A stretch of DNA of 34,406 bases from Chiloscyllium plagiosum (taxonomy: Eukaryota). Location of the stretch: positions 9,137,076 to 9,171,481 of the forward strand of contig NC_057758.1 in the NCBI RefSeq assembly GCF_004010195.1, in the 5' to 3' direction. Position 1 is the first letter of the stretch. The number at the start of each line of letters is the position of its first letter. The translations under genes were made by a program, and so were the position numbers. Below are positions 1,037 through 26,910 of the stretch, one piece after another. The notes under the pieces are model-generated. The model worked only from the letters and a program-made list of their open reading frames with translations. It had not been told where the DNA came from and did no database searches.

Positions 1037-1927
1037 GCAATTGTTATATTTTCCCAGGGAAATTGTGGGATCTCCAACTGCACCACTCGTTACATGGTGG
1101 CCATGGCAATGGCGGATCTACTGACGATTATCACTGAGGTCATGCTTCTCCGAATCAATTGATATTATTTCCCGATGTCTCTCCTGAAGCTCACTGCTGT
1201 TTGTAAAGTTAACTATCTCCTGGCTTGATTAGCAATGGACTGTTCAGTCTGGTTCAGTGTCGCTTTCACGTTTGATCGATTTATGGCAATTTGTTCCGAG
1301 AGGCTTAAAATTAAATATTGCACCAGGAAAACTGCAACAGGAGCTCTTACAACAATCAATATATTTTTTAGTTTAAAAAAACACCCATTTACTTCCGATT
1401 TTAGCGAATTATTAACAATGTTCTTCTGTATTATTCTATCAAACGGAATCTATTTCACTGACCCGAGATGGATTGTATTTAGAATGTTTGATAAGGTTTT
1501 AACACCATTGTTACTACTTGATTTAATTCTGTTGCACAATGCTCTGATAGTCAGGCAAATGTTAGTGGCTAGTCGAGTCCGTAAGGGACTGAAGGTTCAT
1601 ATCAAGGGACAGAATGATCCAGAGATGGAGAGCAGACGGAATTCTTTTATTTTAATTCCCACAATTTCGTGCAGTTTTATACTGTTGTGGTTACTGTATA
1701 TTTTGTTCATTTTTAATGTTAATGAACTCCTCGATGACAATTGTGAATGTATATTTGAGGACATTGCACATATGTTGCAGAATTTAAATTGCAACACAAA
1801 AGCATTAATTTATATTGCGACGCAATCCAAGTTCAGAGAGGAGTTGAAGAGCATGGTGAAATATCCAGTTATAATAATTATGAAACGAACTTCGAAAGGA
1901 AATATCTCAGAGCTGCTCAAAAGATGA
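1037..1927 (+). pseudogene. GPR139/GPR142-like class A GPCR, copy A, exon 2 (5' end lost in gap), disabled
   Basis: Motifs AIVIFSQGNCGIS..TTRYMVAMAMADLL, DCSVWFSVAFTFDRF, LHNALIVR, DPEMESRR, IYIATQSKFRE. In-frame TGA at 1160-1162 and 1226-1228; -1 frameshift near 1380 and +1 near 1447 relative to intact copy C. Confidence 0.9.
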
Positions 1928-4689
1928 CACGCGAATGAAATGAGTGGATTGGCAGAGCATGGTTGGGAAAGAAAATAGAGAAGCAAGATGTATTGAGGTG
2001 GCGTGACCAATCCACATGGCGTAACAGAGGAACTAAGAAAGAACAGGGGCACCAGTTCAGGCAGAAACCTTCTTCAGGCCTGAAAGAAATGAACAGGCAT
2101 AACACAAATCCGCAAAAGCAGCAAGGCACGTCCTATATGAACTTGTATGACTGATTACAAAAGAGCAGGAAAATTCTCACATCCTAGAGAAAAGAGGACA
2201 AGGCCTAGAGAAAACAACCGTCCTGCAAACACGGTTGAAATGTGCATACGAGGAAACAAAATGATGGGTTAACATTGTATGCTGCAGGATTTTATTCCTT
2301 ACATGGCATCAACAAAATCATTTTCTGTCAGACAGAGCTCAATAATTCAACAAAGAAAGGATCAACTTGGCGTTGTACTTTATTCATCATATTATTGCCA
2401 TTGATACTGGTACAGATTAGACGCAATGGTTTCTGTGGTGAGGAACTCGTCGCCACTCTTGAAAATGCGCATCCACCTTCTTGAAGGCAGACGTCTGAAA
2501 TATAATGAAACACTCGCAGATGTGCTCGGATTGGTGCAGCTCGAACTGTATGTGAGTTTCTCAAATGATGCGGCAGGAATTTAACTGTTAAACCCTTTTG
2601 TTAACAAGTTGAATTTTCGCATCAGAGCCGGATTCTGCTCAGAGATAAGTAGATTTACGTAGTCTAGTTAAACATTCAGCTCCTGATAAAGCAGTTATCC
2701 ATCTATGACTGGAAACCCTTCACCTGAATGCGGCCCTCAGTATTGTCTTCACGTCTTTTGATTAATGGGGGGGTTCGGGATTTGGGGGAAGCAAATCCAT
2801 ACAGTGATTCATTGAAATCTAACTTAAATAAGGTTGAATAATGATATATGGGAATTGTTTGATAGTGAGAATTATGCACAATGGGGAAGGAAGTGATTCA
2901 CTTAGCATTTCTTCCAAACTGAAAAGCGTGAGGGGAGAGTTCGGTGCAGGATTCCAACTCCCCAACCCGAACCCACCTCGACGTACCCGGTTCTGGTCAG
3001 TTGCAGGCAGAGGATATTTCAGCAATTGCGCAAGTTGTTAGAGAAATGGTCAAAACGCGAAAACTGTCCTGTAGTCTTTTTCGATTTTTGGGCATTGGGT
3101 GTTGACCTAGGGCATGCATGTTCTCTGCAGTGTGCAAGCACCAAACAGACTGGGAGAGATAGGCAGACCGATTAGGAATCTACAAAGAGAGTAAAGATAA
3201 TACCAATGTATTTGTTTCTGAATGAAAGTAGGAACAAGTGTCCTTGTGGAAACGTCATTGAACTCAGAGATCCCATGCTGATGCTCTGAAGATGTATTTT
3301 CAAACAATCCCCTTGTCTGATGCAGCTGTTTCCCTGAAGATCGCTTTTCCACGAATATAACACAGACTCTGCTTAGACATTGCACAATTTCGACATTTTC
3401 TCATTCTGCCGTTTTTTTTGTTGCACTCCAGAGTCGTGTACAATTTTAGTATTTGTGAAACCTGCGGACTCCTCATCAGCTTTCATTGCTATTTGTTAAT
3501 GGGTTATTTCAGATAACGTTAAGCCTGTTCTGAGAAATCTGACAGAAATCTTGCTTCATCGTCATTAAAAAGTTATTCATGAAATTTCCAATCATGGAAC
3601 GGACGAAGAAAACCTTGTATTATTTCTCGAATCTTCTGCTCTTTCTCTGAGCAATTGTCATCAATTAATTTCAAAAAATGATAAGAAAGAAATTGTGCTC
3701 AAATGACACATTGTCCTGTTTCTATAATACTGAAAGTAATTGTAAATTTGAAAACCTGTGTTACAGTCCTTAACTCTGGCTAATGATTGCCCTCACACTC
3801 TTGAATGATGACATTTAAACATTAGAGAACAACACATGCAAAGAATTGTGATGACCATGGACAGGTCCTTCATGGAATGATCAGGATGAAGACGAGTTCT
3901 AGGTACATTTCGTTCAATAAAGTGCCGGATTTAAAATCATTTAATGGCGGTTTCCTACTTGATTAAATGGTTTTCTACAAAAAAAATAATAATTCAGACA
4001 GGACTTCTACGATTGTTGGTTGATATTTGTGCATAACGCATTTTGTCAATTTCCAACGAGGTAAGAGAATACTGAATTCCGTCTACATTTCCCACTGTCT
4101 GGTACTGTATATGACCAAGCACCTTTAATTTTCTCCCCACCTCTCACTGTCAGATCCATGAATCTCTGGGACTGTGGAACTTTGTTACAAGTCATACATT
4201 GTAAGTGGGATTCATTCTGTCTCTTAATCTTGCTGACAGTCAGCATGATTTGCAGCATTAATTTCAGAATCTCTAGTTTTCTGCATGGAAGTGTGATTCA
4301 CTCTGCACTCTGGTATCTGTGAGATGACAGTGCTCAGTGATGGAGCTCCATCCGTCCCATTTAATTAAGACTCCATCATTGACGACTCGTATCAACACAC
4401 AGTGTCTGGCACCACTTCGGCATACAAAGACCAATTATGAAATGGTCTTCCCCAGCAGCTCGAGCATTTCCGTCTCTTCAGGAACAGGGAACAAAGAGTC
4501 GTTCTGCTCAGATCAGAGAAGGAGTGCGTGAGGTGGATTTTCTGCATATGCCTGGACAGTATCCGAGCCGTGCCCCCTATAAACATACGATTCTCAACTG
4601 AATCAACACTTCCTGCTCCAAATTTTCTGGAATAATTACACGGTTCTGAAACAGAAATTGAGTGAGTGCCACTCTCTCACAGAGCATTA

Positions 4690-5445
4690 CCAGATGGTCA
4701 GTGCTGAGGAAGTGCTGCACTATTGGAGACTCAGTGCTGAGGGAGAGCCGCACTGCTGGAGGTCAATGCTGAGGGAGTGCTACACTATTGGAAGGGTCAG
4801 TGCTGAGGGAAGTGCCGCACTGTTGAAGTTTCAATGCATGAGTGGGCATTATCAAATGGTCAGAGCAGACAGAGCTCTGCACTGTCGGAGGGTCAGTGTT
4901 CAGGGAGTTCCTCACCGTTGGACGGTCCGTGCTGAGGGAGCGTTGAATTATCGGAGGCTCAGTACTGAGGGAGTGGTCACTGTCAGAGTGTCAGCACTGA
5001 GGGAGTGCAGCACTGTTGGAGGGTCAGTAATGAGGGAGAGGCCACTGTCAGAGGGTCAACACTGAGGGAGAAACCACTGTTGGATGGTCAGTGCTGAGGG
5101 AGAGAGCAATATTACAGGATCAGTGCTGAGATAGTTGGCACTCATGTAAGTTCAGTGCTGAAGGAGCGGCGCACCTGCTGAGGTTCAGTCCTGTTGGAAG
5201 GGGCACTGTCTGAGGGAAAAGTCCTGTTGAATGGGTCACTGTTGGAACGGGCAGTGCTGTGGGAATGTCGCACTATTGGAGAGTTAGTGCTGAGGGAGCG
5301 GCGCACTGATGCAGGGTCAATGTTGTGTAAGTGCCGCACTGTTGCAGGGTAAATACTGTGGGAGTGTCGCACTGTTGGAGGGTCAGTTCTGTGGGAGTGC
5401 TGCACTGTCAGAGGGTCAGTGCTGTGTGAGTGCTGCATTGTTGTC
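4690..5445. repeat. 33-bp degenerate minisatellite (consensus ~gagggagtgctgcactgtcggagggtcagtgct)
   Basis: About 20 units, e.g. actgttggagggtcagttctgtgggagtgctgc followed by actgtcagagggtcagtgctgtgtgagtgctgc at 5371-5436. Confidence 0.93.
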
Positions 5446-6169
5446 AGGGATTGTGGAGATGGTCGTCTGAGATGGAAAATGGTGAGATTTCTACACAGCT
5501 CGAATTCTGTGGGGTGCTGCTTTCAGATTCAGCAATAATCTCAGATCAGTGACAAAGCAATGAGTGAGTTAAGCTGAGCATTCGACACACGATGAAACCA
5601 TCAAAATGCCAATCCCCAGCTCCAGGGCAACGGACAGTCTGTAACTAGCTAATGGAAACCAGCTGCAATGGCAGGAGTTGCTGGGGAGGGAGCTGATGTG
5701 TGGTCAGTGACTGACTTGGACTCTCTCTCTCCCTCGGTCATTAAGTCACTTGAGATATATCCACAACCAGTTCCACACGATCCAGAAACATGGCCCATTT
5801 ATCCAGACAGGCATTCCCAAATGTGAAGCAGGAGTGCATCGAAATATCTAGTCCCGAGGTTGGGGGGTGTAGGGAAGGACCGTATATCTAACACACCGTG
5901 ATCACAGATCCTGGGGTAGGCGGCTTTGCCCTGGAACTTCTCCAATGTTGCTGGACATGCCCCCCCCCCGCCCCCCCCCCGGTGCACATGGCCTGGTAGA
6001 TGATGTATTTGAGGAACGGTTTGACGTGTCAGCCATGCCTCAGGCCGAAAGGGGCCGGGGACAGGGGGTGAGGGGGATCAAAACTGTGGTTCCGGCCTGG
6101 CGTGGAGTGCTAATGAAAGTAGGAAAAGGGGGTGGGGGGAAGTGAAGACTGCTGAGGTAAGGGTAGTCT

Positions 6170-7140
6170 GGTACAGAGACAGAGAGAAGGGTTAGATAGC
6201 GAGAACGAGAGCGAGACAGACAGACATAGAGAGAAAGAAAAGGAGACGGTGCCAGGTAGATAGGGAGAAAGAGAAAGTGTTGAGTGGAGAGAGGAGAATA
6301 CAGCGAAAAAGTGAGGCAGACAGACAGAGAGAAACAGAACTGTGGATAGAGAAAAAGAGCGAGAAAGGCATAGATAGAGGGAAAGACTTTGAGTCGTAGA
6401 GACAGAGGCAGACATACAGGGAGAGTGTGAGCGAGAATGACAGATTTTGAGAGAGTTACAGAGAAATAGAAAGACACAAAGAGAGACAGTGTGTGAAATG
6501 GAAAGAGAGAGGTTTAAATAGATAGAGAGATGTAGAGAGAGAGGGAGAGAGACAGCCAGGCAGACAAACAGACACTGTGAGGGAAAGGTCAGGTTAGCGA
6601 TCAAAATCACAGAGAGAGAGAGAAGTGACTATGAAGACAGAGAGAAAGAGAGCCAGATACAGAGGGATGAGCAAATTACTGCGGATGATAGAATTTATAC
6701 TGGAAATAAGAGATGCTGGAGTTCACAGCAAGTCAGAAAGTATCCATAAAGAGAGAGCCAGCTTCCGTTTCAAGCATTTCTTGACTCAATGCATGAGCTT
6801 GCTCTCTTTCCGTGAATGCTGTCTGACCCACTGTGATCTCCAGCATTTGTTGTTTACAGGAGAGACAGAGTGGTGTACACAGAAAAACAGAGATATAGCT
6901 GGAAAGAGAGAGAAAGAAATACTGACGGCAGTCAGGGGTAGTAACATAAAGATAGGGCTAGCACGAGAGAGAGACATAGAAAGAGAAAAGAGAGAGACAG
7001 TAAGGTACAGTTTGAAAGGGAGAGAAAGAATGACAGAAGGAGCAGTAGATAGTGAAGTGTTAATAGACAGATGACGTCAGAGACAGAGAATGAAGTAGGG
7101 AGTGTGCGAGAGAGATGCAGACAAAGAGAGAGAGAGCTGT
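6170..7140. repeat. GA-rich low-complexity tract
   Basis: Purine-rich gaga/gaca repeats; the ORFs over it are artefactual. Confidence 0.9.
6710..6852. mobile_element. short fold-back element made of two inverted PLE 3' ends
   Basis: atgctggagttcacagcaagtcagaaagtat...gagagagccagct is the imperfect reverse complement of agcttgctctcttt...atgctgtctgacccactgtgatctccagcat; the arm resembles the PLE tail at 21734-21765. Confidence 0.65.
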
Positions 7141-7149
7141 AGAAAAAGA

Positions 7150-7880
7150 AAATCCAACCTTGGTGGTGGAGAAAGTATTAGAATCAATTCTGAGGAACAC
7201 AATTAATTTTCATTTGGAGATACAGGAATGAATCTGGAACAGTAAGCTTGGCTTTATTAAAGGGAGGACATGTCAAATCAACATCATTGTTTTTATTTTC
7301 AGAGGTGACCAGTTGTGCAAACAACGGTAATGTATTATTTTTGACGTTGTCTACAGGGCGTCAGCCAGGCACTCGATATGGTCCCACATCGGAGACTGAC
7401 AGGAAAGGTAAGAGCCCAAATATCCAAAGAAATTTGGAGAGATGAATTCACAGTTGGCTGAGATGCAGAAGGCAGAGGGTCTTGGTTGAGAGGTGTCTTT
7501 GTGACTGGAAGATTGCGACCAGTGGGATCACAGGATCCCTGCTGTTTGTGGGTGACATCAATGATTTAGACTTGAATTTAGGAGAGATGGTCAGTTGAAT
7601 TCAATCCAGGCAAGTGTGAGCTGATGCTTTTGGGCAAGGCAAACAAAGCAGGAATATACATGACTGAGTGTTTACGAGTAGGGAGGTGATGCTGGAACAG
7701 GATAAAACAGTTCAGGTCACAGCTGGAATATTGCGTGCAGTTCTGGAATCCACATTAAGGAAGGGATGTAATAACACTGGATAGGATGTTGCTTGACCTA
7801 GAGAGTTTCATGTTTGTGGAGAGATCAAAAAACCTAAGGTTATTTTTCTAAGATCAGAGGAGTCTGAGGGAGAAAGTGAT
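7150..7880 (+). mobile_element. decayed CR1 LINE RT fragment with internal deletions
   Basis: Similar to the CR1 at 17797-18791 (tgactgga..gaccagtgg, atcaatgatttagac, gtgcagttctgg). Confidence 0.8.
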
Positions 7881-8516: not shown

Positions 8517-9047
8517 CCCTGCTCAACATTGACATTCCACCCCATTTGCAGAATACCTCCGGTCCGTGCACAAGCATGAGCCTGACCTTCTCTTAGCACA
8601 GTTATTTTAACAGAGCATCCTGCTCGCAAGCCCATGTGTCTGTGTTCGGTACGCTACCATACCCCAGTGAATCACAGCGCAAGCTGGTTTAGCAGCATCT
8701 CATATTCAAACCAGGCATGTTCTCAAACTTCTGAACTTGCGTTGAGTTCAACACCTTCAAATTGCGAACTCATTCCTTCATTTTCTCTCAGCTTTGCTTT
8801 TTAATTTTTGTCTATCACGCTCTCTCCCCTCACGCCAACACCAGTGGACGATCTACTCTTGCCAGTTTGGCAGGTCGAAACACAGTTATTCTACCATTCG
8901 CACAGTCTGATCACTTCATCTAAATTATCAATATCGTTTCTAAGCCCCAGCAATCAACCATCCCCCAGCAATGTTGCATAAATGCAGGTCCCTCCAGACG
9001 TCAACATCTAGACTCAGAACGTGAGTTTCCTCCCTCGCCATGGATAC
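8517..9047 (+). mobile_element. decayed Neptune-type PLE 3' fragment (end of GIY-YIG domain plus 3' tail)
   Basis: tttgcagaatacctccggtcc..., cagcatctcatattc... match the EHL..., LIFRLG segments of the PLE at 21144-21815. Confidence 0.7.
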
Positions 9048-9049
9048 AT

Positions 9050-9580
9050 TCCTCATGATGTCACACACGTCTACAAGGTCACTCCTCAGCCTCCGAAGCT
9101 CCAGGGAAAAAAACAACCCCAGCCGATTCAACTTCTTCCTACACTTCAAATCCTCCAACGGTGGCAACATCCTTGTATGTTTTTCTGAATTCTTTCAAGT
9201 TTCACAACATCCTTCCAATATTCTGCAAAAGGCCTGGCCAGTCTCCCGTGCAGCCGCAACACGACCTCCCAACCCCTGTACTCAATGCTCTTACCAAGAA
9301 AGGAAAGCATACCAAACGCCTTCTTCGTATCTACTTGCGACTCGACTTTCAAGAAACTATGAACCCGCACTCCTTGTTCTCTTTGCTCAGCACCCCCCCC
9401 CCCCCCACCCAGGACATTATAAAACCTGTCTGATATGCTTTTGCAAAATGCACATTAACTAACTTAAACCCCATCTGCTACACCTAAGCCCATTGGCCAA
9501 TTTGATTCTCAGGTTACCTTCTTGGCTACCCACTACAACGCTAAATTTGGTGTCATCTGAGAACTTACAAACTATATCTC
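9050..9580 (-). mobile_element. CR1 LINE fragment
   Basis: Minus-strand peptides KVESQVDTKKAFGMLSFLGKSIEYRGWEV and LNRLGLF..LELRRLRSDL. Confidence 0.85.
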
Positions 9581-9794
9581 ATATATTCCCATGTTACGTC
9601 CTTTCCATCTTCCCTGAGAACCTTTACATGTGGCATGTGCAAGGTTACTCCGTTAGTAATACAATGCCGCATTCCCAAAGAATGTGTGGATTTCCGCTAA
9701 TTGCAGTCCTTTCTTAACTGAAAAGTTCACTCCAGTGTTTTACACATGTGATTTTCGTTTTGTCCCAATGATGTTTCTTCTGTCCAGGAGTGGA

Positions 9795-10019: not shown

Positions 10020-11750
10020 GAGTATCGATTTTGATAAGGGATAGCATTGCAGCTGTGCTGAGGGAGGACATTCCCGGAAATACATCGAGGGAAGTTATTT
10101 GCGTGGAGCTGGGAAATACGAAAGGGATTGTGTTGTAGAACCCCTAATAGTCAATGGGAAATTAAGAAATACTTTTGTAAGAATATTTCAGTTATGCATA
10201 ACAATAATAGCGGGGTTATGATAAGGGACTTTTAATTTCCAAACATGGACTGGGATAGCGTGAAGTGTTTGGATGGAGAAGAGTTGTTAAAAGTGAACAA
10301 GAAATTTTTCTGATTTAGTATGTGAATGTACCTAGTAGAGAAGTGCAAACATTGACCTGCTCTTGGGTAATGAAGCACGACAGGTGACTAATTTGTCAGT
10401 GGGGAAGTAATTTGGGGCCAGCGACTGATATCCTATGAGTTTTAAAATCGTGATGGAAAAGGATAGACCAGATCTAACAGTTGAAGCTCTCAATTTCAGG
10501 AAGGCTCATTTTGACGGTATTAGGCAAGAACTTACAAAAGCTGATTGGAGCAGATGTTTGCAGGTAAAGGAACGACTGAAAAATGGGACGACTTCAGAAA
10601 TGAGACAACGAGAGTCCAGCGTGAACGAAAAGGCTGGTAGGTGTAGAGAATGCTGTATGACGAAAGACATTGAGGGTTTGGTGAAGAACAAGGAGGAATT
10701 ATATATCATTTATAGACAGGAGATATTGAGTGAATCATTAGAAGAGTATAAAGGCTGTAGGAGTATACTTGGGAGGGAAATCAGGAAGGCAAAAACAGGA
10801 CATGAGATAGCTTTGGGAAATAATGTCATAGAGAATCCAAAGTGTTTTCACAAATACATTAAGGACAATCGATAACTCGGGACAGAATAGGGCACCTCAA
10901 TGATCAGTAAGATTGTCTTCGTATGGAGTTTTAGGAGATGGAGAGATACTAAACGAGTATTTGGCATCATGGTTTACTGTAGAGAAGAACATGGAAGATA
11001 TAAAATGTGAGGAAATGAATGGTGGCATCTCGAGAAATGTTAATATTACAGAGGAGGAATTGCTGTATGTCTTAAAATGCATAAACGTGTATAAATCCCC
11101 ACGACCTGGTCAGGTCCCTAGAACTCTGTGACAAGCCAGGGAAGTGATTGCTGGTCCTCTTACTGAGATACTTGTATCATCGATATTCACAGGTGTGGTG
11201 TCAGAAGACCGGAGGATGGCTAACATGGTACCATTATTAAACAAAAAAGATGTTAATAACAAACCAGGGAATTATAGACCAGTAAGCCGACATTGGTGGT
11301 GAGCAAGTTGTTGGAGCAAATCCTGACGGACATGATTTACACATATCTGAATAGACAAGGAATGATTAAGGATAGTCAGCCTGGTTTTGTGCGAGGGAAA
11401 TCATGTCTCACGAACTTGAGTGAGTTCCTTTGAAAAAGTAACAAAGGAGATGATAACGGCAGAGCGGTGAACGCGATTAATATCTTAAGTAAGGCGTTCG
11501 ATAAGGTTCCCATGGGAGACTGGTTAGCAACGTCACATCTCATGGAATACAGGGAAATCTAGCCATTTGAATACAAAACTGGCTCAAAGGTAGAAGACAG
11601 AGGGTGGTGGTGGAGGGTTGTTGACTGTGACCAGTGGAGTGCCACAAGGATTGGTGCTGGGTCCACTACTTTTCGTCATTTACATAACTTATTTGGATAT
11701 ATACATGGGAGATGTATGGGTAATTTTGTAGATTTCACCAAATTTGGAGA
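10020..11750 (+). mobile_element. CR1 LINE ORF2 fragment (endonuclease end, linker, RT), many stops and frameshifts
   Basis: GDFNFPN.DW, LNFRKAHFDGIRQEL, ENPKCFHKYIK, EILNEYLASWFT, KSPRP, PGNYRPVS, SKAFDKVP, GVPQG. Confidence 0.92.
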
Positions 11751-12080: not shown

Positions 12081-12137
12081 ATTTGTAGCTCGGGTGATAG
12101 TTGTTGTGGTTCTGTTCGCTGAGCTGGGAATTTGTGT

Positions 12138-12178
12138 TGCAGACGTTTCGTCCCCTCTCTCGGTGACATCCTCGGTGC
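12138..12178 (-). ncRNA. minimal hammerhead ribozyme motif with core mutation (CUGA to CCGA)
   Basis: Minus strand reads GCA-CCGAGGA-U-GUCACCGAGAGAGGGGAC-GAAA-CG-UC-UGC. Confidence 0.7.
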
Positions 12179-12802
12179 TTGGAAGCCTCCTGTGAAGCGC
12201 TTCCGCTGGCATTTATAGGTGATTTATATCTGCCGCTTCCAGTGTCAGATCCAGCTGTCCGCTGCAGTGACCGGTATATTGGGTCCAGGTCGATTGCTTA
12301 TTGATTGAAATTGTGGATGAGTGCCATGCCTCTGGGAATTCCCTGCCTGTTCTCTGTTTGGCTTGTCCTATAATGGTAGTGTTGTCCCAGTCGAACTCAT
12401 GTTGCTTGTCATCTGAGTGTGTGGCTACTAAGGATAGCTGGTCATGTCGTTTCGTGGCTAGTTGGTGTTTATGGATGCGGATCATAGCTGTTTTCCTGTT
12501 TGTCCTATGTTGTGTTTTGTGCTGTCCTTGCATGGGAGTTTGTACACTACATTAGTTTTGCTCATGCTGAGTATCGGGTCTTTCGCCCTGGTGTATTGTT
12601 GTCTGAGTGTGGCTGTTGGTTTGTTTGCTGTTATGAATCCTAGTGGTCGCAGTAGTCTGGCTGTCAGTTCAGAAATGTTTTTGATGTATTTCAGTGTGGC
12701 TCGTCCTTTGAGTTGTGGCATGTCCTCATTCCGTTGTATTTCCTTTAGGCATCTGTTAATGCACCTGACTAATGCACCTGAGACACACATACGTGACCAC
12801 AA

Positions 12803-13117
12803 TAGGAAATTGACCATGGCCAATTCACTTTAACCTGTGCATCTTTGGACTATAGGAGCACACCGGAGGACACGAAGGAAACCCATACAGACACAGGGAG
12901 AATGTGCAAACTCCACACAGTCACCCGAGGTTGGAATCAAACCCGGGTCCCTGGTGCTGTTCTAAACACAGAGAACAGAGTTGAATGAGGAAGTTGGAAA
13001 AGAAAAACGTTCTGCAACGTAGGAACTGCTCAGATGATTGGATCATTGGCTGCGTTCAAGATTTTTTGGTGTGGTCTGACCTGGCGCTGTGAGGCAGCAG
13101 TGCTAACCACTGAGCCT
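12803..13117 (-). mobile_element. HE1-type SINE fragment interrupted by a 119-bp insert
   Basis: Reverse complement of HE1 (agaatgtgcaaactccacacagtc; gaggcagcagtgctaaccactgagcc); insert at 12961-13079. Confidence 0.85.
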
Positions 13118-13512
13118 TCGTGTTCATGGATGTGCCCGCTCAGTGAATTTGCCATGGGAAATGCGAGATTACCGGATAGAGGTGGAAACTTCTTGTGGGT
13201 TTCCGGGGTTTGGAGCCCTGGCATGTTCTTCCGAGGGTTAGTTCAGTCTCGAGGAGCCGAGCAGCTTCCGTAGTTATTCAATGATTCTTTGGACATAAAA
13301 AATATTCAGTCCTTCATATCAGTAGATTCGCTGAAATCACCATTTTCATGTTTTGAAAGAAAATTAATGCAGCCGCAATTATGTAACTTGGTTTAGTTAT
13401 GGTTTAAACTGTGAAGGTAGCTTATGGCCATGTCTCCAACCAAATCTCAGTGCTTACTATCTCCACACGAGTATAAACAAAATTGAGATCCTCTGCCGAC
13501 TCCTTCTGACAG

Positions 13513-14401
13513 CAAATCTCGTGGCAATTGTCATCCTACCCCAAGGAAAATGTGGAATCTCCAGCTGCATCACTCGTTACATGGTGGCCTTAGCAATGGC
13601 GGATCGACTGACGATTATCATTGAGGTCATGCTAATCCGAATCAATAGTTTTTATTGCCCGTTGCCTCTCCTGGAACTCACTGCTGTGTGCAAACTTTAC
13701 TATGTCCTGGCTCGATTAGCAATGGACTGTTCAGTCTGGTTCACTGTCACCTTTACTTTTGATCAATTTATTGCAACTTGTTGTGAGAGGATTAAAATAA
13801 AATATTGCACAAGGAAAAGTGCAGCAATAGTTCTTGCAACAGTCGGTATATTGTTTAGTTTAAAAATATTCCCATTTACTTTCGATTTCAGCCCAAGCGA
13901 ATAATTAATAATGTTCCACTGTATTGTTCTAACAAACGAAGCTAGTTTACTGACCCAAAATGGATTGGATGTAGAATGGTTAATACGATTTTAACGCCAT
14001 TGTTGCCATTTGGTTTAATTCTGTTGCTCAATGCTCTGATAGTCAGACATATATTAGTGGCTAGTCGAGTCTGTAAGGGACTGAAGTGTCATAGCAAGGG
14101 ACAGAATTATCCAGAGATGGAGATCAGGCGAAATTCTGTGATGTTACTCCTCACCATATCGTGCAGCTTCATACTGCTGTGGTTTCCGTATATTTTGTTC
14201 ATTTTTAACTTTACTGAACTCCTCGATGCCAGTTCTGAATATGTATTTGAGAAAATTGCCTATACGTTGTGAATTTTAACTTGCAGCACAAACACACTAA
14301 TTTATGTTGCAACACAGTCCAAGTTCAGAGAACAGTTGAAAAACATGGTGAAATATCCGGTTACATTAATTATGAAACTAACTCCAAAAGGAAACAACTG
14401 A
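13513..14401 (+). pseudogene. GPR139/GPR142-like GPCR, copy B, exon 2, disabled
   Basis: Acceptor tccttctgacAG at 13511-13512, phase 1, reading (A)NLVAIVILPQGKCGISSCITRYMVALAMAD; FDQF in place of FDRF; -1 frameshift near 13865; in-frame TAG 13943-13945 and TGA 14270-14272; frame resumes TNTLIYVATQSKFREQLK to TGA 14399-14401. Confidence 0.9.
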
Positions 14402-17312
14402 GAGCTGCTGAAATGATGATACGTGAATTGAAAGAGTGGCTTGCCAGAACATCGTTGGGAAAGAAAATCGAGAAGCAAGATGTATTAAGGTGTCGTGAAC
14501 AATCCACATGGAGGAACAGAGGAACTAATAAAGAACAGCAGCAGCAGGTCAAACAGAAACCTTCAGAGTGCCTGAAATAAATGAGCAGGTATAACCCAAA
14601 TCCCCAACAGCAGCAAGGCTAATCTTATATGAACGTGTATGGCCTATGGCAAAAGAGCAGGAAAATTCTCACATTCCAGTGATAAGGGGATAGGCCTATA
14701 GATAGCACCCGTCCTGCAAAGTAGGTTTGTACGAGGAAACAAAATGATGGGTTAAGCTTGTGTGCTGCAAGATACTATTCCTTACATGGCAATCAACAAA
14801 AATATCTTCTATCAGGCAGGGTAAAATGATTCAAGAAAGAAAGGATCAATCAGGCATTGAACTTTATTCACCATATTATTACCATTGATACAGGAACAGA
14901 TTAGACGCAATGGTTTATTTGGTGAGGAACTCATCGCCCCCCTCCAAAATGCGCATCCACCATCTTGAAGGCAAACGACTGAAATATAATGAGATATTCG
15001 CATTTTTTGCTGGATTTGTGCAGCTCGAACAATATGTGAGATCCGCAACCGATGCTGCACGAATTTAATTGGTAAACCTTTTTGTTAAAATCAAGTTAAA
15101 GTTTCACGTCAGAGCTGGATTCTGCCCAGAGACACATAAACGTAAGTAGTGCAGTTCAATATTCAGCTCCTGATAAAGCAGTTATCCATATATCACTGGA
15201 AATCCTTCACCTGAATACGGCCCTCAGTATTGTCTTCAGTCTTTTGATTGCTGAGGAGGTGGGGGGTGGGGGGTTGAGGGAAACTAATCAATAGAGTGAT
15301 TTATTACAATCTTACTTACATTGAATAATGATATCTGGGAATTGTTTGACATTGAGAATTGTGCACAATGGGGGAGGAAATGATTCACTTAACATTTCTT
15401 CCAAACGGTAAAGTGTGCTGAGCGGAGAGTTCGGTGCAGGATTCAAACTGTACCACACGAACCCACCCCGTAGTACCAGACAGAGGATGTTTCAGAAATA
15501 ACACAAGTTTTTTAGAGAAATGGTCAAAATGCGAAAACGTATCAGGGGTGCTTTCGATTTTTGTGCATTGGGTCTTGCACTCGGGCGTGCGGAGTTTCGG
15601 CAGTGTTCAAGAACCAACCGGACTGTGAGAGATCGGCATACCAACATGGAATCTACAAAGACAGTAAGGATAATACGAATGTATTTGCTTCTGAATGAAT
15701 GTAGCAACAAGTGTCCTTGTGGAAACGTCATTGAACTCAGAGATTCTATGCTGATGCTCTGAAGATGTATCTTCAAACAACACCATTGTCAGATGCAGCT
15801 GTTTACTTGAGGATCCCTTTTCCACGTATATAACACAGACTCTGCTTAGACACTCCGTCATTTCGACATTTTCTCATTCTACTGTATTTTTCTTTTATTG
15901 CTCTCCACAGCCATGTACAAGTTTCAGAATCTGTGAAACTTGCGGAATCACCATCAGCTTTCATTGCTATTTGTCATTGGGTTATTTCAGAAAACTGTTC
16001 TGACAAACCAGACAGAAATCTTACTTCATCGTCATTAAAAGCTACGCATGAAAGTTTCAGTTATGGAATGAGTGAAGAAAATCTTGCAGTATTTCTCGAA
16101 TCTTCTGCTGTTTCTCTGAGCAATTTTCATCAATAATTGTTAAAAATAAGACAGTAACTATGCTCAAATGACACATTGTCCTGTCTCTATCATACTGAGA
16201 GTAAATGTAAATTTGACCAACTGTGTTGTAGTCCTTAACTCTGGCCAATGATTGCCCTCACAATCTTGAATGTTGACAGTTACAGATTAGAGAACGATGC
16301 GGATAAATGAATTACGATGATCTTGGATAGATCCTTTAGGGAATGATAAAGATGGAGGCGAGTTCTAGGTTCATGTCGTTCAATGAAATACCTGTTTTAA
16401 TATCGTTTGGTGGTGGTTTCCTTCTTGATGAACGGTTTTATACAAGAAAACATTAATTCAGGCAGTACTTCAATGATTGTTGATTGATGTTTGTGTAAAG
16501 CGTCCTGTGTTTGATACATTTTGTCAATCTCCGACGATGCAAGAGAATATTGAATACTCTCTGCATTAACCAGTGCCTGGTACTGTATATGACCACGAAC
16601 CTTTCATTTTCTCCCCACTTCACACTGTCAGATTTACGAATCTCTTGGTGGAACTGTGTTTTGAGTCATACATTGAAAGTGGGATTCATTCTATCTCTGA
16701 ACCTTGCTGTATGTCATGGTGAATTGTAGCTTTTCTTTCAGACTCTCTAGTTTTGTGCATGAAAGCGACATCCACTCTGCACTGAGGCCCTGCTCAACAT
16801 TGAGTGTAGATCCCCATTTGCAGAACACCTCCCGTCCATGTACAAGGATGATCCCAAACCTTCCCGTAGCCCAGCCATTTTAACACAGCACACTGCTTGC
16901 AAGCCCATGTGTCTTCAGTGCACTAACATAGTCCAGTGAATCACAGCGCAAGCTGTGGAAGCAACATCTCATCTTCAAACTAGGCATATTCATCAACTTC
17001 TGGACTAATGTTTTGTTCAAAACCTTTAAATTGTGAGTTCATTCCTTCATTTCCATTTAGCTTTGTTTTTTTTTCACTTTCTCTATCGCCATCTTTCCCA
17101 TCACTCCGACTGCAGTGGGACGGTCTCATCTTGCCATATGGAAACAGAGTTGTTTTACCATTCACACAGTCTGATCACCTAATCTGAATTATCAACATAT
17201 TTTCGAAACCTCAGCAGTCCAACCATCTCCCAAGCAATGTTGCATAAATGCGGCTCTCTCCACACATCAACATCTAAGCTCAAAACTTGAGTTTCCTCCC
17301 TATCCATGGATA
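13521..17312 (+). repeat. segmental duplication unit B
   Basis: Colinear with unit A except for the missing 4310-8516 segment; junction at 16783/16788. Confidence 0.9.
16788..17312 (+). mobile_element. decayed Neptune-type PLE fragment, duplicate of 8517-9047
   Basis: tttgcagaacacctcccgtcc..., cagccattttaacac, caacatctcatcttcaaactaggc. Confidence 0.7.
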
Positions 17313-17374: not shown

Positions 17375-17795
17375 AATTCCCCAAACCACATCCCTTACCA
17401 CTGTGTCGCGCCCAGCACACCACAAACCCCGCCCATAAACACTGTGCCCCGCGCAGCATCCCCCAAACTCCACCCCAATCAATGTGACTCGCCCAGCGCA
17501 CCTTAAACTCCACTCTCAAACACTGTGCCCCGCCCAGCACATCCCAATCTCCGCTCCCAAACACAATTCTCAGCCTAGCACACCCTCAAACCCCGCTCCC
17601 AAACACGGCCCCGCCTATTGCACAAACCCCACAAACAACAATTCCCCATGCAGTGCACCCCAGGAACTTCCCCAAACACTGTAGATTGACCAGCGCTCCA
17701 CAAACACCGCTCCCCATACATTTTGCCCTGTCCAGATCATCCTAAACCCTGCCTCAACTATAATTCCATGCCTTGTGCACCACAAACCCGCACCT
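17375..17795. repeat. C/A-rich degenerate tandem repeat
   Basis: Recurring aaacactgtgccccgcccagcac and aaaccccgc motifs. Confidence 0.75.
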
Positions 17796-17796
17796 A

Positions 17797-18791
17797 TCAT
17801 GTCTCACAAACTTGATTCAGTTTTTTTGAAGAAGTAACAAAGAGGATTGATGAGGGCAGAGGGGAAGATGTGATCTATATGGACTTCAGTAAGGCGTTCG
17901 ACAAGGTTCCCCATGGGACACTGATTAGCAAGGTTATGTCTCACGGAATTCAGGGAGAAAAAGCCATTTGGATACAGAACTGGCTCAAAGGTAAAAGACA
18001 GAGGGTAGTGGTGGAGGGTTGTTTTTCAGACTGGAGGCCTGTGATCAGTGGAGTGCCACAACGATCGGTGCTGGTTCCTCTACTTTTTCTCATTTATATA
18101 AACGATTTGGATGCGCGCATAAGAGGTACAGTATGTAAGTTTGGAGATGACACCAAAATTGGAGGTGTAGTGGACACCGAAGAAGGTTACCTCAGATTAA
18201 AAATCTATCTGGAACAGAGGGACCAATGAGCAGAGAAATGGCAGATGGAGTTTAATTCAGATAAATGCGAGGCGCAGCATTTTAGGAAAGCAAATCTTAG
18301 CAGGACTCATCCACTTAATGGTAAGGGCCTAGGGAGTGTTGCTGAACAAAGCGACCTTGGAGTGCAGGTTCATAGCTCCTTGCAAGTTGAGTCGCAGGTG
18401 GATAGGATAGTGAAGATGGAATTTGGTATGCTTTCCTTTATTGGTCAGAGTACTGAGTACAGGAGTTGGGAGGATATCTTGTGTCTATACAGGACATTGG
18501 TTAGGTCACTCTTGGAGTATAGCGTGCAATTCTGGTCTCCTTCCTATCGGAAAGATGTTGTGAAACTTGAAAGGGTTAAGAAAAGGTTTACAAGGATCGT
18601 GCCAGGGTTGGAGGATTTGAGCTACATGTAGAGCCTGAACAGGCTGGGACTGTTTTCCCTGGAGTGTCGGAGGCTGAGGGGTGACCTGAAAGAGGTTTAC
18701 AAAATTATGAGGGGCATGGATAGGATAAATAGGTAAAGTCTTTACCCTGGGGTCGGGATATCCAGAATTAGAGGGCATAGGTTTAAGGTAA
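17797..18791 (+). mobile_element. CR1 LINE RT and C-terminal region, fairly young, truncated by gap
   Basis: IYMDFSKAFDKVPH, GVPQRSVL, YINDLD, KFGDDTKIGG, YRTLVRSLLEYSVQFWSP; stops at 18229 and 18631. Confidence 0.95.
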
Positions 18792-19291
18792 NNNNNNNNN
18801 NNNNNNNNNNNNNNNNNNNNNNNNNNNNNNNNNNNNNNNNNNNNNNNNNNNNNNNNNNNNNNNNNNNNNNNNNNNNNNNNNNNNNNNNNNNNNNNNNNNN
18901 NNNNNNNNNNNNNNNNNNNNNNNNNNNNNNNNNNNNNNNNNNNNNNNNNNNNNNNNNNNNNNNNNNNNNNNNNNNNNNNNNNNNNNNNNNNNNNNNNNNN
19001 NNNNNNNNNNNNNNNNNNNNNNNNNNNNNNNNNNNNNNNNNNNNNNNNNNNNNNNNNNNNNNNNNNNNNNNNNNNNNNNNNNNNNNNNNNNNNNNNNNNN
19101 NNNNNNNNNNNNNNNNNNNNNNNNNNNNNNNNNNNNNNNNNNNNNNNNNNNNNNNNNNNNNNNNNNNNNNNNNNNNNNNNNNNNNNNNNNNNNNNNNNNN
19201 NNNNNNNNNNNNNNNNNNNNNNNNNNNNNNNNNNNNNNNNNNNNNNNNNNNNNNNNNNNNNNNNNNNNNNNNNNNNNNNNNNNNNNNNNNN
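18792..19291. other. assembly gap (500 N)
   Basis: 500 N. Confidence 0.99.
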
Positions 19292-19774: not shown

Positions 19775-19897
19775 CAGAAACAGATTGCACTCAGAGGCAG
19801 ATATCAGAAACAGATTGCACTCAGAGGCAGATATCAGAAACGGATTGCACTCAGAGGCAGATATCAGAAACAGATTGCACTCAGAGGCAGATATCAG
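19775..19897. repeat. 30-bp tandem repeat, 4.1 copies (cagaaacagattgcactcagaggcagatat)
   Basis: Near-perfect, one substitution in the third unit. Confidence 0.97.
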
Positions 19898-20275: not shown

Positions 20276-20279
20276 GCCT

Positions 20280-20600: not shown

Positions 20601-21143
20601 CTATGTTTAATAGGAAGAAATTGCAGCTCATCCAGGGTGGGGTATCAGATAAACACTGACAAATCAGAGGCAGTTGATACATACAGAGTGATGACAAGCT
20701 GATGAGGTTTGGTCTGTTCATGTAGATACCGCCTTGTAGCTGATCCCTGCCTCTGGGCCAGACCCTGTAGGCATTGTTGGTCACAGAATTTGTGCAGGTT
20801 GCACAGCCAGGCACGTTGATGGTGAACCTGTAAGTGCTTCCAACTTGCCTGACGGCAGGGGTAAAGTGGACAAGTTTTCTGGTCATCAATCAAGTAGTAA
20901 GCAATAACAAATCACTGTAATACTCTGCCCACAGGGGGTGGACCAATACAATCAAACTCTCTGAGATGAGAATGGGAGTACAGACAGACGGTATTCATGC
21001 AGATCCTCAGATTCTAATGGATGAAGTGAGAGTGAAACCAGAGGAGAGCAGTTACACTCAGTAAAGCAATGGGGGAGGGCAAAAACCACACACAGGTCAA
21101 GAAGGGAGAGACAGTTGGGTTATCTTTGTCACAGTCATGGAAC

Positions 21144-21815
21144 TTCCATATCCGCCACAGATTCACCTGCACCTCCACCCACATCATCTACTGCATCCGC
21201 TGCAGCCGGTGTGGCCTCCTCTATATTGGGGAGACAGGCCGCATCCTTGCGGAGCGATTCAGAGAGCACCTCTGGGCCACCCGGACGAACCAACCCAACC
21301 ACCCTGTAGCACAGCATTTCAACTCCCCCTCCCACTCCACCGAGGATATGCAGGTCATTGGACTCATCCACCGCCAAACCACAACAACGCGACGGTCGGA
21401 GGAGGAGCGTCTTATCTTCCGACTGGGAACCCTCCAACCACAGGGGATGAACTTGGACTTCACCAGTTTCTTCATCCCCCCTCCCCCCACCTCGTCTCAG
21501 CCGAATCCCTCCAGCCCGGCACCGCCTTCCTGACCTGCAGTCGTCTTCTTGACCTCTCCGCCTCCATCCTACTCCGACCTATCACCCTCACCTTGACCTC
21601 TTTCCACCTACCACATTTCCAACGCCCCTCCTCCAAGTCCCTCCTCCCTACCTTTTATCTTCTCCTGCTGAACACTCTCTGCTCATTCCTGAAGAAGGGC
21701 CTGTGCCCGAAACGTCGAATCTCCTGTTCCCTGGATGCTGCCTGACCTGCTGTGCTGTTCCAGCAATAAAGTTTCAACTTTGATCTCCAGCATCTGCAGA
21801 CCTCACTTTCTCCTC
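21144..21815 (+). mobile_element. young 5'-truncated Neptune-type PLE: undisrupted GIY-YIG domain, hammerhead, 14-bp TSD
   Basis: FTCTSTHIIYCIRCSRCGLLYIGETGRILAERFREHL...PVAQHFN...EEERLIFRLGTLQPQGMN; TSD cacagtcatggaac at 21130-21143 and 21816-21829. Confidence 0.95.
21685..21720 (+). ncRNA. minimal type I hammerhead ribozyme motif, intact core
   Basis: AUUC-CUGAAGA-A-GGGC(CUGU)GCCC-GAAA-CG-UC-GAAU: stem I AUUC/GAAU, stem II 4 bp, palindromic ACGU stem III, GUC cleavage triplet ending at 21716. Confidence 0.88.
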
Positions 21816-22640: not shown

Positions 22641-22739
22641 AACAAGCAGGACCCAGACTTTGCAGAGCCAAAAGCTTTTTATGTTTGAAAGGAATCATGC
22701 ATTAGCGTATTCTTCGTGGGACATGATCAAATGCATCGA

Positions 22740-23420
22740 AGGTCATTATGGAAAGCTGGGGATGAAATAATGGGGACCCTAGCAGAGATATTTCTAACAT
22801 CGATAGCCATGTGGTGAGATTTTCGGAAAACTGGAGGGTGGCTAATGTTCTGCCATCATTGAAGAAAACCTTCAAGGAAAAGCCAAGGAGCTACAAACTG
22901 TGAGTTTAACATCAGTGGGAGGTAAGTTGTTAGAGGGAATTCTACAAATCGGGATCTGCATGAATTTGGAAAGTCCAGAACTGATCAGGATAGACAGCTT
23001 GGCTTTGTGCATGAGTGATCGTGTGCCTCAGTGATTGAGGTTTCTTGTAGATGTGACCAAGAAGACTGATGAAGGCAGAAGGGTAGACATTGTCTAATTG
23101 GAATTTAGCAAGGGCTTTGACAGGTCTTCCCATATTAGAATAGCGAGTAAGATTAGATCGCATGGAATCCAGGGAGAGGTTGCTAAGTGGGCACAACATT
23201 AGTTTGAGAGTACGGATCGAGGTTGATGGCTGAGGGTTGTCATTCAGACTGGAGGCTTGTGAATAACAGTGTGCTGCAAGGATCGGTGCTGGGTCCTCTG
23301 CTGTTTGTCATTTATATAAGCAATTTGAATGGGAGTATAGGAGACATGGTTTGTAAGTTTGCAGAAAACACCAAAACAGATGTTATTTGGGGCATTAAAG
23401 ACCGTTATCTAAGAGTACAA
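22740..23420 (+). mobile_element. decayed CR1 RT fragment
   Basis: actggagggtggctaatgtt, tttagcaagggctttgacagg, SVLQGSVLGPLLFVIYI..KFAENTK. Confidence 0.88.
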
Positions 23421-23627
23421 CAGGGTTTTTGGAACGGAGGGCCTAGGCTTTGTGTCTTTGCTCTGCATCAAAACCTAATTTCACGCATTTTTTTTCCCGT
23501 TTTTTTTCTTTCCCACATATTAATTAGGATAAGCGTGGAAATTATTACCTAATTTTGCTTGCTCACCTGACTGTCGCGAACAGCTACAATGTCAAAGCTA
23601 ATGATCTCTCCAGAGACCAAACTGCGT

Positions 23628-23633
23628 TATAAA
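23628..23633 (+). promoter_or_regulatory. candidate TATA box of GPCR copy C
   Basis: TATAAA 64 nt upstream of ATG 23692. Confidence 0.55.
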
Positions 23634-23691
23634 TGGCGATGGCCCCAAAATCAGAGCAGCGAGCACATCAGTGCGTCAATTTTCACCAAAG

Positions 23692-23761
23692 ATGCACGCA
23701 CCAGGGAAAGGTCTGATCTTCGCTATTTATTACACAGCTCTGGCAGTGTTCGGAATTCCAG
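23692..23761 (+). CDS. GPR139/GPR142-like GPCR copy C, coding exon 1
   Basis: aagATG; MHAPGKGLIFAIYYTALAVFGIP plus 1 nt, donor GTAAAC at 23762; phase 1 joins exon 2 to give TM1 ...FGIPANLLTI. Confidence 0.88.
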
Positions 23762-25029
23762 GTAAACCTGAGGACATTTAATGACGGGAATATGAATGGT
23801 TCAATGAGTCTGCAGTGAATAGCTACTTATGCAACGCATGGAGGTATTTCTTCCCCTTAGACTCATTCTCATTGTTCAGTTAAATTGCTGCCTCATTAAT
23901 TTCACTATTCTCATTATGTGCGACTGTAACATGGAGTTAAAGTATTGTTTGAAATTGAGATGTTCTGTTTCTTGACTGCGAAAGTCATCTTTTTGTTTAA
24001 TTTCTGCTCCAGCATCTTTTTAATGCGTCAGTATTCCCATTCGGTGCTCTGCTCAATGGCTTCACACCCTTTTTCATCCCACTTCTCCATCCAATTCCCA
24101 TCTGCTTTCAAATCGGATTCATTTCATTCGAGATCACGACATGGATCAAGGGGCGTTTCTGAGAGTGGAAAATGAAATTGCATTCGAACGCAGGATGTTA
24201 TAAACAATAAAATGACAACATTTGGAGATGACAGTGAACAATGTGATGGAAAGCCTTGGACTGCCATTGTGAGAGGGAAGCGAGCCAGGGTTATTTACTT
24301 TGAAATTTTGCTTCACTTCCAACTGAGTTGGCTCACCATAATTTCAAAATCTGTCGATTGCCCGTTTTCATTGTTTTTCTTAATACACAGAACGGATCCC
24401 TCAAATCATTATTATTAATCATCATTAAGAAAAAAAAACCTTGGTTTCCGTAATTAATTTTTCGTTATGCTCTAAAATATCTCTGGCAGATAGCCATAAT
24501 AATTTTTTTCCTGTATCATGCGTGGTAACTGCCAGAATTGAAGTTCATTGTCCTACTGTACTTCATTGTTGGTCACGGTGTGTGCCCAGGCTCAAAACAG
24601 GACTCAATCTCTACGTCCTTTATCTCGCTGCTCTGAGGGACTGAGGGTTAGATCTGTCCACCGTCTGAAATGAGGTTAAAGAAATTTGTCTTTTATAATT
24701 AATGACACAAAATCTTCGCTAACGCTTCATAATCATTGTCAAGAGTGCTAACTCTCATTTTGTTTTTCTCAAACAAGACCAAGCTGCCGGTGTTCCCCTT
24801 TCAGTCCGTCTGTCCTCTGTGTCCATTGTATCCAACTCCAGGTTCACAGTAAAATAAAACTGCAAATACTTCATGACCAGTCCCTGCATTTAACCATTTT
24901 GCGCTACAGCACGCTACCTGTCCATGTTTGTATGTAGATTGCATGCCTTGTGTTCTTACAACTGCAATATAATTACTTACCGTTCCTCAATTCTGTATTA
25001 TGACAATTTGCTGATTGATTATGTTTTAA

Positions 25030-25643
25030 AATAAGAGCACCATTGTGCTACTGAGACTTTATAAAGCTCTGGTTAGGCCCCATTTGGAGTACTGGGTCCA
25101 ATTTTGGGCCCCACACCTCAGGAAGGACATACTGGCACTGGAGCATGTCCAGCAGAGATTCACACGGATGATCCCTGGAATGGTAGGTCTAACATATGAG
25201 GAACGGCTGAGGATCCTGGGATTGTATTCATTGGAGTTTAGAAGATTAAGGGGAGATCTGATAGAAACTTACAAGATAATACATTGCTTAGAAAGGGTGG
25301 ACATTAGGAAATTGTTTCCGTTAGGCGAGGAGACTAGGACCCGTCAACACAGCCTTAGAATTAGAGGGGGTAAATTCAGAACAGAAATGCGGAGACATTT
25401 CTTCAGCCAGAGAGTAGTGGGCCTGTGGAATTCATTGCCACAGAGTGCAGTGGAGGCTGGGACGCTAAATGTCTTCAAGGCAGAAATCGATAAATTCTTG
25501 ATGTCACAAGGAATTAAGGGCTACGGGGTGAATGCGGGTAAGTGGAGCTGAAATGCCCATCAGCCATGATTAAATGGCGGAGTAGACTCGATGGGCCGAA
25601 TGGCCTTACTTCCACTCCTATGTTTTATGGTCTTATGGTCTTA
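25030..25643 (+). mobile_element. young CR1 3' end within the GPCR intron
   Basis: Open frame LYKALVRPHLEYWVQFWAPH...FFSQRVVGLWNSLP; 3' UTR ends in (ttatggtc)n octamer repeats. Confidence 0.95.
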
Positions 25644-26002
25644 AGAATGAGTACATTCACGTTTTGCATTATTATGTATATCGTCAATTATTTTAACATG
25701 TTCCTTTTCCTTGTTGATGCCTTGCAGAATTTCCAACCATTAAGCCTCTATGTTACAGATACTTACCATGAATAAACATCTGAAACAGAACATTCCATTT
25801 TCTTCTCTTGGTGTTTGTTGAAGTATAATTTGGAATATCGTAGCTGAAAATGATTAATAATTCCAACAGTTTTGATGTTTGATTAAATGCTTTATTGTTT
25901 ACAATTTAAGGTTGCTTTAAGAAAGTTAATGTTGTTGGTGTAATTCTGATGTCTCCTTTCCCCTCCTCCTTATCCTGTTTCTCTCTCATTCCCCCCTCCT
26001 AG

Positions 26003-26910
26003 CTAATCTGCTGACCATTGCGACCTTGACCAGAGGAAAGTGTGGTCTGTCTAAATGTATCACAAGTTATCTGTTATCAATGGCAGTGGCAGACCTCCTT
26101 GTCATTATCACTGCTGTGATGCTAAGCCGTCTTCGTGACATTTATTTCCCAGTGAGCTTTCTATCTACCACCCCTGGTTGCACAGCTGTCATTATTCTGA
26201 GTCGTGCTTCAAGAGATACGTCTGTGTGGTTAACGGTTGCATTCACCTTTGATCGTACCATAGCTATTTGCTGTCAAAGACTGAAAGTCAGATACTGCAC
26301 GGAGAAAGTGGCAGCTGTGGTCACAGGAATTGTCTCCGGTCTGTGTGCTTTGAAAACCATACCAATTTACTTCATACATAAACCTCTGTATATCATTAAT
26401 AATGTACCATGGTACTGCAGCATTAAGGAAATCATCTTTGTGTCAGTTGCATGGAGAATGCTTGACTGGCTAGATCGCATTCTCATCCCTTGTCTCCCAT
26501 TTCTCTTGATTATTATTTTCAATTCGCTAACAGTCAGACACATTATAGTGGCCAATAGATCACGTGAGAGACTTCGAGCTCACCACAGCGGTACCAGTCA
26601 GAGCGACCGAGAAATTGAGAGCCGGCGAAAGTCCATCATTTTATTGTTTGCCATCACGGGTAGTTTCCTCCTGTTGTGGCTGACGTACATTGTAAATTTT
26701 GTATATGTGCAGTTTACAAATAATAGCTATTCCTCAGGTTCGAATTCGAACGATTGGAAGTTTATCCTGCAGGAAAGTGGGTATATGCTACAACTCTTAA
26801 ATACATGCATCAACACAGTTATCTATGCTGGCGTGCAGACTAAGTTCAGAAAAAAGTTGAAGGATACTATAAAATACCCCTTCAATTTGATCGCTGGATG
26901 CTTCACGTAA
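26003..26910 (+). CDS. GPR139/GPR142-like GPCR copy C, coding exon 2 (spliced protein 325 aa, intact)
   Basis: Long polypyrimidine tract and AG at 26001-26002; YLLSMAVADLL, Cys at top of TM3 and in ECL2, SVWLTVAFTFDRT, PCLPF, FLLLWL, CINTVIY, TKFRKKL; no stops. No symbol given because it looks like a paralog rather than the GPR139 ortholog. Confidence 0.93.

Follow-up and report, generated by a model that had tools for sequence, protein, structure and literature searches.

The receptor locus

We analyzed a 34,406-nucleotide stretch of Chiloscyllium plagiosum DNA (NC_057758.1; hereafter the window, to whose positions all coordinates refer) that carries three copies, here termed A, B and C, of a rhodopsin-class G-protein-coupled receptor (GPCR) gene. 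A preliminary description had presented them as an array of GPR139/GPR142-like receptors with three same-strand paralogs, two dead and one intact, and as candidates for a sensory family of elasmobranchs. All three copies indeed lie on the plus strand; A and B are broken, C is open over 325 amino acids without an internal stop, and no other intact gene was found in the window. Sequence comparisons place the window copies in a large orphan class A receptor family of cartilaginous fishes that goes under a misleading GPR139 label.

Copy C is a two-exon gene with a phase-1 intron and encodes a class A (rhodopsin-like) GPCR. In a Pfam search it scores 62.3 bits against 7tm_1 (curated cut-off 30.5), which is its only match at E<=0.01, with no match to the profiles of the olfactory receptors (ORs), V1R, V2R, T2R and Srw; TAARs, which have no profile of their own there, are absent from the 13 solved relatives of C found by sequence. 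The class A hallmarks are all present, namely N1.50, D2.50, D-R at 3.49-3.50, W6.48, N7.49, Y7.53 and the cysteines of transmembrane helix 3 (TM3) and extracellular loop 2 (ECL2). The predicted structure (mean predicted local distance difference test score, pLDDT, 86.8) displays seven membrane helices, helix 8 and a hairpin in ECL2. Both the start codon and the first exon match those of annotated shark and ray relatives, the length of the N-terminus is the same as in C in 74 of the 105 top matches that begin with methionine, and a first-exon profile, itself built from relatives of C, recovers this exon at E 5e-12.

Contigs from two DNA runs with the same species label (X1 and X2) span both exons and the intron of C and retain an intact frame, with no exonic indel. 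The best-supported coding differences from the assembly, both amino-acid-changing, affect residue 33 (position 26029) in X1 and X2 and residue 226 (26609) in X2. Contig depth in these runs is about 25-30-fold higher across the TM3 stretch of C, a rise that fits the presence of many paralogs but should not be read as a copy number. Two single-cell runs, X5 and X6, from one sample of unstated tissue, of which ~2% and ~6% of the reads, respectively, were mapped against 23300-27750, are uninformative on expression either way; the X5 reads fall nearly all on repeat pieces, with no splice joint and a depth of 0.7 in a single exon bin, and X6 yielded no reads there.

Copies A and B form a decayed pair. 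In A, positions 1160 and 1226 carry stops, one base is lost near 1379 and a compensating one gained near 1449, and 6 bp are missing near 1402. In B, a 1-bp loss near 13866 is joined by stops at 13943 and 14270, and glutamine replaces R3.50. Two further seeming stops, at 1714 and 14206, are alignment artefacts. Positions conserved across the family are altered in 12 of 60 cases in A and 10 of 61 in B, as opposed to 2 of 61 in C, the latter being the family median. The duplicated unit that includes A and B extends over at least 3.3 kb, plus a separate 0.5-kb block, and the two copies are 83.7% identical in their coding parts and 83.2% in their 3' flanks. They also have in common the same 1-bp loss in a run of adenines, and their differences are spread near-evenly over the codon positions (40/44/55). 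The shared frameshift and this even spread hinted at duplication of an already dead gene, a scenario that neutral simulations did not uphold. The ratio of nonsynonymous to synonymous divergence (dN/dS) between A and B, 0.52 over 263 codons, lies below the simulated neutral values in six of six settings (p 0.002-0.035), and selection therefore acted during part of their history; against C the ratio is 0.24-0.27, with dS ~2. The simplest reading of these sequences is that A and B would have duplicated while some selection remained and that both then decayed, in which case the shared loss may stem from repeated slippage or conversion.

The proposal that B and C share a phase-1 intron in TM1 stands on the acceptor side, where the AG of B sits at the codon position and phase seen in C. 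The donor side of B has no detectable exon, and the intron is checkable at the acceptor alone, because neither two profiles nor a DNA alignment gave an above-chance signal for a first exon between A and B; a candidate at 5758-5825 was rejected, as its score of 19.1 (39.5 for the exon of C) was below that of several repeat windows. Likewise, the extracellular loops and TM6-7, said to differ strongly between A/B and C, do so in ECL3 (1-2 identities in 17 positions, 12 of them gapped in the alignment) and TM7 (7-8 of 25), whereas TM6 (14-16 of 30) and ECL2 (11-13 of 26) are about average. The reported spacing of ~12.5 kb holds between A and B, but its evenness is partly an artefact because the distance from B to C contains a 500-N gap (18792-19291) whose true length may differ, and the adjacency of A/B to C rests on scaffolding. 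C has no flank in common with A/B. Because the subfamilies of C and of A/B are distant from each other, as indicated by a dS of ~2 and by the trees described below, a recent three-unit array is unsupported. Querying with the first part of B yielded five matches among 625 candidates (54-60% identity), on contigs other than those of the relatives of C; five are too few to test whether the A/B and C subfamilies adjoin elsewhere.

A multi-copy family among cartilaginous fishes

A search with C recovered 1752 clusters (90% identity) at E 1e-3 among 3862 candidates, the best 120 of which were examined; the remainder may include other GPCRs. Eighteen named shark and ray species account for 119 of these best 120, and 115 of the 120 bear the name probable or putative GPR139; other automatic names within the family are GPR15-like, capa-receptor-like and vasopressin-V2-like. 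The horn shark Heterodontus francisci alone contributes 53 of the 120, with 36 of the 53 on one 59.5-Mb contig representing one chromosome, and the addition of six from other searches brings its total to at least 59 distinct proteins on 11 contigs. Thus, the copies are not limited to a few per genome, and the clustering in H. francisci, together with the dead A and B, bears out the earlier idea of tandem expansion with gene death. In an exhaustive search, 105 clusters (50% identity) were obtained at E<=1e-30; all 22 of the 22 that were looked up are chondrichthyan, and two of these are from the chimaera Callorhinchus milii. Below the chondrichthyan set come proteins of Latimeria, salamanders, teleosts and amphioxus with 25-34% identity to C. 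Family members reach at most 75% identity to C, and A, B and C all fall inside the set. With at least 59 members in one horn shark, the family may therefore be the largest class A receptor repertoire of cartilaginous fishes. These animals have been described as relatively poor in GPCRs (PMC8455134) and have on average 43.8 olfactory receptor genes, with a range of 20-62 (PMC10869828).

We computed a FastTree phylogeny of 214 rows (211 of 313 proteins, after a length filter and removal of redundant amphibian and cluster members, plus A, B and C) and an IQ-TREE phylogeny of 51 chosen rows. The chondrichthyan proteins form one clade in IQ-TREE (ultrafast bootstrap, UFBoot, 96), and FastTree agrees with weak basal support, in keeping with the proposed lineage-specific origin. 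Confining the family to elasmobranchs was right for sharks and rays but too narrow as a limit: because the two Callorhinchus members occupy separate places in the tree, the family is chondrichthyan and extends beyond elasmobranchs. The subfamily of C holds both sharks and rays (FastTree 1.0, UFBoot 79) and is therefore older than the shark-ray split, whereas A and B join a Chiloscyllium protein in another, distant subfamily (support 99). More generally, the large tree has species-specific bursts mixed with old shark-ray subfamilies. The branch of C measures 0.28-0.32 versus 0.03-0.18 in its closest shark relatives; this, along with the differences between the assembly and the DNA runs, may point to fast change in the lineage of C.

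The sister group of the chondrichthyan clade comprises sturgeon and amphibian proteins (UFBoot 96), and the Latimeria/teleost and amphioxus groups branch outside both. A search with the salamander protein returned 25 matches among 1675 candidates, consisting of 20 amphibian clusters (one per species), one from sturgeon and four from elasmobranchs, and none of the 25 is an amniote or teleost entry. The sister gene (rows P0237 and P0277-P0296) occurs in frogs, salamanders, caecilians and sturgeon, once in each species. To judge from the match list, it appears to be single-copy, and it could serve as a convenient proxy for the ancestral receptor.

By sequence, the best solved relative of C is human GPR139 (PDB 7vug; 48 bits, E 9e-12), the next being 18 bits lower. 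The two proteins have ~85 identities over 293 positions by hand count (~29%; 24-25% in structure alignments), as against 70% between human and zebrafish GPR139 (PMC7946892). Activation of GPR139 by Trp/Phe needs F109, H187, W241 and N271 (PMC5430874). Only one of these four residues, the TM6 tryptophan, is retained in C, while GPR139 F109, H187, N271 and R244 align with R91, D181, Y284 and Y252. Owing to the low identity, the replaced pocket residues and its deep nesting in a multi-copy clade, C is not the GPR139/142 ortholog. The possibility that it nonetheless represents GPR139 or GPR142 of the shark, a receptor for aromatic amino acids with two dead copies nearby, draws on the prevailing database names and on the rank of GPR139 among solved relatives; with the foregoing evidence already contradicting it, we regard it as hardly worth entertaining. 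The implied link to Trp/Phe is also unsupported because three of the four needed residues are replaced in C, and recognition of these amino acids in the manner of GPR139 seems unlikely from the aligned pockets. C resembles GPR139 in its class A fold, short N-terminus and W6.48, and differs from it in having the TM3-ECL2 cysteine pair, which is absent from the aligned GPR139 chain, and in belonging to a multi-copy family, GPR139 being single-copy. Like C, GPR139 has a two-exon layout with an intron in TM1.

Another group of potential relevance is that of GPR210A/B, GPR139/142-related orphans of coelacanth, gar and teleosts without a human ortholog (PMC6504862). Latimeria and teleost proteins of a similar kind score 99-145 bits against C; they fall outside the family and its sister. 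A term search of that study gave no shark or cartilaginous data, and GPR210A/B are bony-fish only in that account.

Receptor surfaces and the proposed sensory role

Sequence variability was assessed as entropy in 193 family rows, 120 of them relatives of C and 73 divergent, with pocket positions set by generic class A numbering. Mean entropy is 2.11 bits at 26 pocket positions, 1.69 at 41 other outer-helix positions and 0.78 at 66 inner positions, and the corresponding values in the 73 divergent rows are 2.68, 2.13 and 0.98 bits; the difference between pocket and other outer-helix positions has p 0.011 in the full set and p 0.0015 in the divergent one. The family pocket residues are mostly polar or charged. 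In contrast, the pocket positions hardly vary across the five amphibian sister sequences. Across the family, 61 positions are kept at >=90%, with dozens of full-length paralogs per species, and the TM3-ECL2 cysteine pair is found in 98-99% of the 193 rows. Most of the family has T instead of P at 6.50 and 7.50. Conserved cysteines are also seen in intracellular loops (ICL) 1 and 2 of the family, and these features may reflect an unusual activation switch or lipid anchoring.

One could regard the expansion as mostly incidental, the outcome of local duplications driven by repeats in the large genomes of sharks, with few old subfamilies being functional and the majority of copies drifting until they are lost. 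The window itself lends some color to this idea: two of its three copies are dead, B has no detectable first exon, A and B have a 1-bp loss in common and are no more alike in coding sequence than in flanks, and the region is rich in satellite and long interspersed nuclear element (LINE) pieces. However, the dN/dS of A versus B is below neutral simulations and that of A/B versus C is lower still, the 61 positions are conserved in dozens of full-length paralogs per species, and sharks and rays have subfamilies in common. Hence we consider it quite unlikely as an account of most of the family.

The alternative that we prefer, at about an even chance, is that the intact members constitute a repertoire of chemical sensors. 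This reading is based on patterns in sequence, namely family size, clustering, turnover, and a variable pocket combined with a conserved G-protein face. A single signaling face combined with diverse pockets, clustering and frequent loss of genes is what characterizes repertoires devoted to external chemistry. The ligands would be water-soluble, probably charged or resembling peptides, and would reach the receptors from the environment or from body lumens. Under such a scheme, one ancestral GPR139-related receptor would have begun to duplicate before the chimaeras separated from sharks and rays. Copies would arise as local duplicates, many of them dying as A and B did, and the survivors would each keep the common face for G-protein coupling as their pockets changed to accommodate other ligands. 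The cells that use these receptors would be sensory (nose, taste buds, skin or chemosensory gut) rather than immune or other, which is the least certain step of the proposal.

Established chemoreceptors offer parallels. A short N-terminus is also seen in OR, V1R and T2R. The OR, TAAR, V1R/ORA, V2R, T1R and T2R families likewise display clusters, gene turnover and a variable pocket (PMC10869828); C differs from them in its TM1 intron and in lacking sequence membership in any of them. GPR139 lies within the kin group of the FMRFamide receptors, and feature neighbors of C include FMRFamide-receptor-like clusters and clusters partly labeled Srw. The nematode srw family is a birth-and-death expansion out of FMRFamide/myosuppressin-receptor kin proposed to sense environmental peptides (PMC2576165). 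The two expansions are independent, C has no Srw profile match at E 0.01, and the srw ligands are themselves only proposed; if the sensory role is true, the chondrichthyan family would parallel the srw expansion from the same receptor kin. A more far-reaching version, possible but rather doubtful, is that these genes represent an unrecognized vertebrate chemoreceptor family, private to cartilaginous fishes and born of GPR139 kin, that would outnumber all their known olfactory receptors combined and explain how a large and acute shark nose coexists with a tiny OR/TAAR/V1R/V2R set.

Several observations weigh against a sensory repertoire. The 50 most specific genes of a catshark 'brain and olfactory epithelium' library include no GPCR, and V2Rs are regarded as the main olfactory family of sharks (both from PMC11979771). 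In little skate, a 'probable GPR139' gene, whose membership in the family is unconfirmed, marks 1.5% of one sensory-ganglion cluster, is not significant after correction and has little or no in situ signal (PMC13694853). As to the sequence evidence, neither tree includes true GPR139 or GPR142, the entropy rows are skewed to relatives of C (120 of 193), and the pocket list consists of positions that we take to line the pocket in generic class A numbering. Furthermore, the long branch of C could signify relaxed selection, and variable pockets with gene turnover fit immune receptors too. No mention of GPR was found in the main text of PMC13694853, and the supplements of PMC13188829, PMC10529500 and PMC11806052 gave no matches.

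In the immune setting, the family would act as receptors for microbial or damage peptides on leukocytes, mast-like cells or nociceptors, as immune or tissue-alarm receptors in the position that FPR- and MRGPR-type clusters hold in bony vertebrates. Clustering, turnover and pocket variability leave the same signature in either case, and the ECL2 hairpin with the near-universal TM3-ECL2 cysteine pair is peptide-receptor-like; in addition, MAS1 and its relatives are absent in cartilaginous fishes (PMC8455134). However, the family lacks sequence kinship to chemoattractant receptors, GPR139 being clearly the best solved relative of C. The fold matches of the C model to CXCR2, NTSR1, galanin receptors and GPR139 all lie at one level and single out no receptor type. 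On balance, an immune role is unlikely. A role inside the body, with the family reading an expanded set of endogenous signals such as neuropeptides or reproductive or osmoregulatory peptides, is improbable. Its appeal lies in the kinship with neuropeptide-type receptors, in GPR139 being a brain receptor (PMC12208981), and in a second skate gene named GPR139, also of unconfirmed membership, that is found in scattered spinal-cord cells (~1.4-1.5% of one cluster; PMC13694853); this gene and the ganglion one gave the only expression rows that were found. Against this, endogenous-peptide receptors are usually stable in number, as shown for nematodes (PMC2576165), and the pocket of the family varies widely while that of the amphibian sister is near-invariant.

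Full-text literature searches, whose coverage leaves out most subscription journals, found no description of this expansion as a family, though supplements may list it; term searches in PMC11979771, PMC10620051, PMC8455134 and PMC6504862 gave no mention of it either. The genes are already in public annotation and their names are automatic; the family is possibly hidden under the misleading GPR139 name. What the present locus contributes is one intact member and a decayed pair, along with the amphibian/sturgeon sister gene as a starting point for functional studies.

Feature coordinates and repeats

Table 1. Positions of the receptor copies and associated features in the window
Feature	Position	Strand	Remark
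Copy A, broken exon 2, from the end of TM1 through helix 8	1037..1927	+	5' end lost at assembly gap
3' flank of A, co-duplicated with A	1930..4309	+	83% identity to 14410-16783
Extra block of the A/B duplication unit	8517..9046	+	78-81% identity to 16788-17312
Copy B, pyrimidine stretch and AG acceptor	13490..13512	+	Same codon position and phase as C
Copy B, broken exon 2	13513..14401	+	Frameshift, stops, DRY arginine gone
3' flank of B	14410..17312	+	Homologous to A flank
500-N scaffold gap between A/B contig and C contig	18792..19291	.	Sequence
TATA-box-like hexamer, 64 bases 5' of C start codon (putative function)	23628..23633	+	
First coding exon of C, encoding a very short N-terminus and the initial part of TM1; phase-1 GT donor	23692..23761	+	
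C intron, 2241 bp, GT-AG, with LINE 3' fragment at ~25030-25640	23762..26002	+	
C coding exon 2, open to stop, remainder of seven-helix bundle	26003..26910	+	Pfam 7tm_1 E 6e-17

The copies are embedded in repeats of several kinds. A 33-bp satellite of ~23 copies (4696-5443) lies between A and B, and no first exon was found behind it. GA/GT-rich simple repeats precede the second exons of A and B on their 5' side (1-536 and 6100-7150). Decayed LINE pieces, comprising the reverse-transcriptase end and 3' tail, occur at 9076-9584, 10200-11750, 17796-18790, 22700-23400, 25030-25640 and 27760-28560, and we take them to be CR1-like. The piece in the intron of C has very deep contig and single-cell read cover that comes from other copies. 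Two fragments, at 12090-12830 and 21036-21800, are presumably Penelope-type-like with a GIY-YIG-like frame. Shorter tandem arrays include a 41-bp C-rich repeat in five copies (17399-17615) and a near-perfect 30-bp repeat in four (19775-19897).

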